From Octopus vulgaris (lineage: Eukaryota): 64,000 nt of DNA. Positions 42,500 through 42,597 of the stretch are shown piece by piece. Positions within the stretch are counted from its first letter, which is position 1. Each line of letters begins with the position of its first letter. Under the pieces are notes generated by a model that saw nothing but the letters and a program-made list of their open reading frames with translations, searched no databases and was not told the origin of the DNA. A program made the position numbers and the translations under genes. The stretch covers positions 6,572,001 to 6,636,000 of the forward strand of contig CATOCA020000001.1 of the NCBI GenBank assembly GCA_951406725.2. Reading direction: 5' to 3'.

Positions 42500-42521
42500 G
42501 TAAGTATCTTATTTATATCCT

Positions 42522-42597
42522 TTCGTATGTTCTACTGAAGACGAAAGAATCTATTATGAGATTAATTTCGAAATTGATTCAATATAGAAATAACGAA
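42522..42597 (+). ncRNA. Type I hammerhead ribozyme candidate in intron 3
   Basis: Stem I TTCGT..TTCTA/TAGAA..ACGAA. Core CTGAAGA (42535-41) plus 1 nt. Stem II GAAA-AATCT/AGATT-TTTC. GAAA at 42570-73. Stem III ATTG/CAAT. AUA triplet, predicted cut after 42584. Confidence 0.7.

Follow-up and report, generated by a model that had tools for sequence, protein, structure and literature searches.

A Penelope/retrozyme-like repeat bearing a hammerhead ribozyme likely supplied a splice donor to a subfamily of octopus ankyrin genes

Exon 3 of an octopus ankyrin gene ends at a splice donor that, on the reading that we favour with moderate confidence, was supplied by a 5′-cut copy of a mobile repeat, likely after the replacement of ~0.5 kb; the hammerhead ribozyme that lies in this copy is likely a tolerated passenger. 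The gene lies in the window, i.e. the whole 64,000-nucleotide stretch of Octopus vulgaris DNA that was analysed, and the coordinates of its features are given in Table 1. We are highly confident that the co-opted part of the insertion is the splice donor.

Table 1. Features of the ankyrin gene, the repeat copy, and the ribozyme in the window
Feature	Positions	Strand	Support or remark
Coding exon 1, ankyrin (MIB2-like) gene	31277..31354	+	
Exon 2, 158 nt, phase-2 end	40557..40714	+	
Exon 3, 46 nt, kept 5′ part of ancestral ~155-nt exon	42454..42499	+	splice joints on both sides, in paralog contigs
GTAAGT 5′ splice site from the element, now exon-3 donor	42500..42505	+	dispersed and gene copies, spliced contigs
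5′-cut copy of ORF-less Penelope/retrozyme-like repeat	42500..42848	+	similarity to dispersed copies from 42500 up to TA tract
Type I hammerhead ribozyme motif	42522..42597	+	descriptor, and compensatory changes in stems I/II across 22 family members
Hammerhead stem I	42522-26/42593-97 plus 42530-34/42585-89		3 × 3 loop between
Hammerhead core CUGAAGA	42535-41		
Extra C in hammerhead	42542		
C instead of subfamily G; with C>T at 42568 moves stem II to the extra-nucleotide register	42542..42542	+	
Hammerhead GAAA	42570-73		
TTTCAG, likely acceptor of an intron of ~141 nt within the element	42635..42640	+	conserved in divergent copies
(TA)n tract, element 3′ end, likely target site	42849..42880	+	30/30 dispersed copies end on a TA run
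Old intron sequence common to element-bearing and element-free paralogs	43301..43540	+	
Exon 4, 155 nt, phase-0 start, acceptor partner of the element's donor	44882..45036	+	
Exon 5, 37 nt	53071..53107	+	
Exon 6	59652..59864	+	

A search of both strands of the window with our own descriptor found one type I hammerhead, whose match at 42535 has 5 contiguous pairs in helix I and 4 each in helices II and III; block-shuffling the window 100 times gave zero strict matches and 0.04 loose matches per window. The motif has the CUGANGA and GAAA core and an NUH triplet around three helices, with helix I open, as in type I hammerheads; the numbering of hammerhead positions, the branch-point consensus, and the splice consensus used here are general knowledge. 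In particular, stem II comprises 4 bp, a 1 × 2 loop, and 5 bp; stem III comprises 4 bp and is near-palindromic; and both the 3 × 3 loop of helix I and a loop 2 are present. The G10.1–C11.1 pair that closes helix II forms in the window copy only in a slipped register with the extra C, and is paired in 7 of 22 members in the family register. The predicted cut falls after 42584, 85 nt past the exon-3 donor, at an AUA triplet, which passages of PMC1636495 report from natural hammerheads. The predicted minimum-energy fold differs from the active fold (−13.8 versus −8.9 kcal/mol), and the folding z-score of the hammerhead stretch is −1.15. Rfam hammerhead families gave zero matches over 42380–42840 at E ≤ 10, and, in a scan of the whole window, microsatellite matches dominate among the 150 listed of 516; the missing hammerhead match is a limit of the library, not a flaw of the motif. 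We conclude that the motif is real, as a sequence-predicted type I ribozyme. An earlier sequence-only reading of this DNA had called it a sense-strand type I hammerhead of the Penelope-like kind with a 4-bp stem III and an intact core, all of which the descriptor match and the letters confirm; the Rfam search that it proposed came back empty, and the minimal Penelope-type motifs that it placed elsewhere in the window are absent by our descriptor, which excluded a zero-length loop III.

The fold is kept across the repeat family. Twenty divergent copies, hand-picked for variety, have 70–81% identity to the unit. In the family members, 87% of helix cells are paired, as compared to 31–43% in slid controls, and 23 cells are altered on both sides, as compared to 6.1 in shuffles; 0 of 500 shuffles reached as high a count, which, because the copies are kin, is not a probability. 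Both-side changes occur in 7 of 22 stem pairs, and among the 22 family members stems I and II show compensatory changes; helix III was set by the search pattern and is uninformative here. Because the fold is kept in the 20 divergent copies, the ribozyme is likely functional for the mobile element.

The hammerhead is part of a mobile repeat, of which this octopus genome contains hundreds of copies. Specifically, the 111-nt hammerhead stretch gave 42 matches at 94–100% identity from the 40 scored of 1046 candidates, a 28-mer of the element has 286 exact genome matches (control, 0), and a gapped core pattern has 654 (control, 1). The statement that the motif is not inside a recognisable repeat or TA tract thus fails against these counts and against the copy's own end in a TA tract. 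The element unit is ~514 bp (range, 486–514 bp), of which the window copy spans about positions 167–514, and this copy is ~4% from the majority letters of 29 dispersed copies. In 30 dispersed copies chosen by the unit's 5′ end for architecture counts, 20 have a partial tandem copy in front and 8 have an inverted piece, features that, together with TA ends, passages of PMC8557442 describe as marks of Penelope-like insertions. Dispersed-copy ends cluster near unit positions 415–422 and 514, giving two alternative 3′ ends ~95 nt apart, as compared to the 30–40 nt tail described for Penelope-like elements in passages of the same paper.

Some observations concern the surroundings of the element copies. 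In the window, a ~310-bp insertion at 42881–43190, in the TA tract behind the element, is missing from most paralogs, has a tRNA-like start by eye, and is likely a SINE. Sequencing run X10 shows depth peaks 20–40× the rest of the element at 42561–42608, 42673–42704, and 42737–42768, pointing to larger related subfamilies that have those segments, and genome matches confirm this for 42561–42608. Beside one dispersed copy lies a 362-codon intronless frame, likely encoding a membrane protein (L097:5795–6880).

The element likely belongs to the non-autonomous Penelope-like elements or the non-LTR retrozymes, judging from its architecture. Pseudo-LTRs of Penelope-like elements carry type I hammerheads, as described in passages of Cervera and De la Pena 2014 (PMC4209133) and Craig et al. 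2021 (PMC8557442). The octopus hammerhead resembles these in its type I topology, near-palindromic helix III, and unpaired base after A9, and the octopus element resembles Penelope-like elements in its partial tandem copies, inverted 5′ pieces, microsatellite targets, and donor near the ribozyme. It differs in having a helix III of 4 bp rather than 0–2, in being ORF-less with no autonomous partner found, and in having its whole ribozyme between donor-like and acceptor-like motifs. Metazoan non-LTR retrozymes, in the parts of PMC7229834 and bioRxiv 10.64898/2026.07.22.740005 drawn on here, are likewise non-coding and AT-rich, with one type I hammerhead per unit, and include copies with a mismatch at the helix II base in axolotl; like retrozymes, the octopus element has two-ribozyme tandems (loci L027, L187, and L196). 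Unlike retrozymes, the octopus unit is 486–514 bp rather than the 150–450 bp reported in those parts, its copies are mostly one full unit plus a partial one, and it has splice-like signals around the ribozyme, of which there are none in those retrozyme passages.

Twelve element loci of 9.9 kb contained no linked ORF. A scrap of Penelope-like reverse transcriptase beside one element copy led to an intact RT–GIY-YIG family, which was rejected as the autonomous partner on the grounds that its ends are unlike the unit (score, 30; shuffled maximum, 34); reverse transcriptase remnants near L187 and L192 were also rejected, as separate insertions. Thus, no autonomous partner sharing the unit's ends was found in the comparison with one intact family and nearby remnants. 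The intact family is itself young (L146:2672–5868, L147, L148, and L159; on C8, C13, C9, and C14), with dozens of open 776-aa frames comprising, by eye, a reverse transcriptase, a CxxC-type linker, and a GIY-YIG-like end; an upstream overlapping frame of ~469 codons suggests a two-ORF layout with a frameshift. No hammerhead is present in the examined ends of this family.

The splice donor belongs to the element, as judged from its distribution among the copies. Of the close dispersed copies, 25 of 29 have GTAAGT at the element's donor position, as do 21 of 22 gene copies, and 14 of 20 divergent copies have GTAAGT or GTGAGT exactly 35 nt ahead of the core. The ribozyme begins 22 nt past the donor; the same donor-to-core spacing in the divergent mobile copies makes this distance the element's own anatomy, and not the host adaptation for which the closeness of the donor had been taken. 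A TTTCAG is present 49–56 nt past the cut in 17 of 20 divergent copies, so that the element's own ~141-nt intron would enclose the ribozyme. Host use of the window's TTTCAG would give an early stop, and no joint from the donor to this acceptor is present among the contig joints listed. Penelope-like elements bear introns at this place, and the 3′ intron end of Drosophila Penelope overlaps helix I, according to passages of PMC4209133.

The host gene is related to Octopus ankyrin proteins, of which many contain a RING (PF13920) and some contain a death domain, and their name, "MIB2-like", is an automatic annotation; no RING or death-domain exons were found within 20 kb past the window. Exon 3 codes for the second helix of an ankyrin repeat. 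The spliced joint of exon 3 to exon 4 is present in two contigs of sequencing run X2 and seven of X7 (two studies; RNA type guessed), and the joint of exon 2 to exon 3 is present in one contig; the spliced contigs come from paralogs and are not provably from the window copy, and the exon 3–exon 4 joint was read from loose ends. The contigs bear out the 46-nt exon and its 5′ splice site that had been described earlier in a cephalopod ankyrin gene. In organisms A and C, the contigs that cross from exon into element reach only 27 and 30 letters to one side of the junction, below the length required. No listed contig from three RNA-type runs spans the cut site with 31 letters on both sides, which has no bearing on cleavage. 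Because exon 3 sits between a phase-2 end and a phase-0 start, a transcript that skipped it would be out of frame; exon 3 is rejected as a cassette micro-exon with in-frame skipping, and with it falls the suggestion that cleavage is coupled to micro-exon inclusion.

The ankyrin–RING–death family is large and clustered on C31 (window 40557–45036, paralogs L160–L176). Its variation falls mostly at a few positions per repeat, with near-identical introns; it has mosaic patterns and internal exon-unit duplications and resembles a diversifying recognition family. In the window, introns 1, 2, and 4 are filled by multi-kb purine-rich and GAT simple-repeat tracts (33450–42380 and 45650–52600) with a GC skew of up to 0.95, and a gap of 100 N lies at 62004–62103. 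Three near-identical 3′ ends of a CR1/L2-like LINE, identified by eye, lie at 691–2690 and 7933–8800, each starting at a TA tract, inside larger local duplications of the first 30 kb.

The window copy starts exactly at the GT of the exon-3 donor (junction 42499/42500). With exon 3 and the upstream intron as query, 40 of 53 candidates were scored, and the unit counts are therefore lower bounds. Two forms of the unit are seen. In 22 of the 40 units the element is present at the same base; in the other 18, which are element-free, the exon runs on open in frame, typically for 36 codons (one ankyrin repeat), to another donor, and in the 16 long units tested no element match and no intermediate form was found. 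Exon 2, the intron past the TA tract, and exon 4 are common to both forms, and the short form is without the exon's 3′ half and the intron's 5′ part (526 nt in L053). Both types occur in series within some genes. Annotated proteins of O. vulgaris and O. sinensis, with two spurious rows dropped, comprise 20 short and 24 long forms, typically 36 aa apart. All six O. bimaculoides proteins that cover the region (10 listed; by eye) have the extra repeat, which indicates that the long form is ancestral. In some long alleles (L083 and an X7 contig) the junction reads GTAA, which matches the element's donor over 4 nt. Exons 2–4 are open in 15 of the 16 short-form copies that have them in range, and one of the remaining six short-form copies has a frameshift in exon 3. 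Because 18 of 40 units run on without the element and O. bimaculoides has the repeat, the element likely replaced ~0.5 kb, and, on this comparison of gene copies, an element copy likely founded a short-form subfamily of at least 22 gene units that lacks one ankyrin repeat.

In the mechanism that we propose, the element would have been moved by a Penelope-type reverse transcriptase and endonuclease targeting (TA)n. Its 3′ end would have joined at the intron's TA tract and its 5′ end at the 4-nt GTAA match inside the exon, either in one step or by insertion followed by deletion. The replacement would have taken one ankyrin repeat together with the old donor and would have supplied an in-frame donor; the product would have survived because frame and repeat register were kept, and the short-form unit would then have multiplied with the gene family. 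In the host intron, the ribozyme would cut more slowly than splicing proceeds. Passages of PMC10919898, citing earlier work, report slow intronic ribozymes without an effect on splicing and fast ones that lower it, and passages of PMC11167929 report that ribozyme cleavage of an anole Penelope-like element is dispensable for insertion in vitro. The open frames of the short form indicate that the ribozyme is tolerated, and it is probably a passenger, given that the long form manages without it and that the genes bearing it are spliced and open.

Other evidence points the other way, to a young domestication, in which an active ribozyme would be under selection, its cut 85 nt past the donor competing with splicing and setting output; we consider this possible, though unlikely. 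Its support includes an approximately threefold deficit of variants over the ribozyme in gene copies, present also in gene copies on other chromosomes: 5 variant alleles in 76 ribozyme sites, as compared to 45 in 203 sites in the rest of the element (binomial p = 0.003). The deficit also appears in comparison with dispersed copies (Fisher p = 0.01; 0.036 without CpG) and in the 5 G-type copies alone (2 versus 26, p = 0.009), and is weaker in the 17 C-type copies (2 versus 18, p = 0.06). The core is intact in 22 of 22 gene copies, as compared to 23 of 29 dispersed copies, and variants are not scarce in the corresponding stretches of intron 2 (16/69) and intron 4 (12/69). A CPEB3 ribozyme described in passages of PMC10919898 provides a precedent. 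Against this, the deficit test was post hoc (p = 0.17 when the stretch of 76 sites may lie anywhere), the control introns predate the element, and the ribozyme starts so close to the donor (22 nt) that selection on it is inseparable from constraint on splice signals and from gene conversion near the exon; dispersed copies number in the hundreds, and the long-form paralogs function without a ribozyme. The outcome that the earlier reading named as refuting a domesticated ribozyme, namely many dispersed copies together with absence from homologous introns, is largely what was found, with the motif missing from 18 of 40 paralogous units; the modest variant deficit in gene copies is what still speaks for domestication.

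Stem II bears on both sides of this question. C is present at 42542 in 17 of 22 gene copies and in none of 29 close dispersed copies; T at 42568, present in 15 of 22 gene copies, restores four pairs and is apparently compensatory for the change at 42542, with one gene copy intermediate between the two stem II forms, as selection on the ribozyme would have it. In the opposite direction, the derived C is predicted to let a rival hairpin of 7 bp form across the core. Relative to the ensemble, the active fold is predicted to cost 3.6–3.7 kcal/mol in 4 of 5 G-type copies, 5.7–7.5 kcal/mol in 15 of 17 C-type copies, 6.8 kcal/mol in the intermediate, and 12.3 kcal/mol in one more. Mobile copies have penalties of 2.4–12 (17 of 20 divergent copies scored), a span that includes the 7.6 of the window copy, and this makes the argument that the window copy's ribozyme is weakened a soft one. 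The idea that the G-to-C change silences the ribozyme is likewise weakened by C or A at this position in mobile subfamilies (by hand count, 14 with C and 38 with A among 100 listed family matches) and by the same span of penalties in mobile copies. An unpaired base at the equivalent position is typical of Penelope-like hammerheads, according to passages of PMC4209133.

An improbable alternative is that splicing, not catalysis, constrains the intron's first ~100 nt, or that conversion between paralogs homogenises them; in one variant of this, the helices would leave the new donor accessible or prevent its pairing with the element's acceptor at 42640. Low variation extends from the donor (2 of 22 sites) to about 42600, the competing acceptor is conserved in the element family, and variants form mosaic patterns among the paralogs, all as such constraint or conversion would predict. 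The high variability of exon 3 (11 alleles in 36 sites) and the invariance of unpaired core letters in 22 copies argue against it. Very improbable is the converse history, in which the short exon came first, together with its intron, and the element inserted at a donor already present, or in which exons fused to give the long form. Intron 1, which is also phase 0 before the same ankyrin-repeat position, fits such a history, but among the 40 exon-3 matches that were scored, a donor at this place never occurs apart from the element, the outgroup O. bimaculoides has the extra repeat, and the exon end and 5′ intron of the long form are absent from the short units. A chance match in AT-rich DNA, with which the empty Rfam search and the modest z-score would be in keeping, is refuted by the shuffled windows, the covariation, and the excess of genome matches over the control.

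Intronic ribozymes of amniotes such as those of RECK and C10orf118 are ultraconserved. They are also isolated and old, whereas the octopus motif is a close relative of a mobile family hundreds strong and lies 85 nt from a donor. The two have in common a sense-strand motif in the intron of a spliced gene, as in the RECK and C10orf118 hammerheads and the CPEB3 HDV-like ribozyme described in passages of PMC10761166 and PMC10919898, and cleavage that could compete with splicing. RECK/C10orf118-type ribozymes are isolated and conserved in orthologs; the octopus motif has 654 genome matches and its outgroup proteins are long-form, and it is not an isolated intronic hammerhead of the RECK type.

Insertion-mediated deletion by L1 and Alu, and splice sites supplied by transposons, are known phenomena. 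The octopus insertion resembles the L1/Alu cases in its 5′ junction at a short match, loss of target, and element-derived donor; it differs in that one ankyrin repeat was likely lost in frame and in that the product is present in at least 22 paralogous units and in the gene sets of two species. Searches of the main texts of open-licence papers found none on this octopus element, gene family, or insertion event.

The locus family offers a clean, datable retroelement change of protein repeat number, with ancestral and derived units in one genome, where one can follow the junction match, the missing half of the exon, and spliced RNA. It is also a natural experiment on a donor-adjacent sense-strand ribozyme, with 22 bearing units, 18 free units, and two stem II forms. 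It is unlikely, though conceivable, that it has caught a ribozyme in the course of domestication, an intron donor and its enclosed hammerhead having been donated together, with the loss of exactly one ankyrin repeat, and the ribozyme now being selected as a splicing-versus-cleavage rheostat in a hypervariable ankyrin–RING–death subfamily of 22 members. For the element itself, Craig et al. (PMC8557442) describe as unknown why Penelope-like elements retain introns and what their ribozyme does, and the donor-like and acceptor-like motifs that bracket the octopus hammerhead make this question testable. If the ribozyme does lie inside a short spliceosomal intron of the element, tandem transcripts would be cut to unit-length templates only where the intron is retained, and a ribozyme that cuts only unspliced RNA would explain why Penelope-like elements keep their introns.
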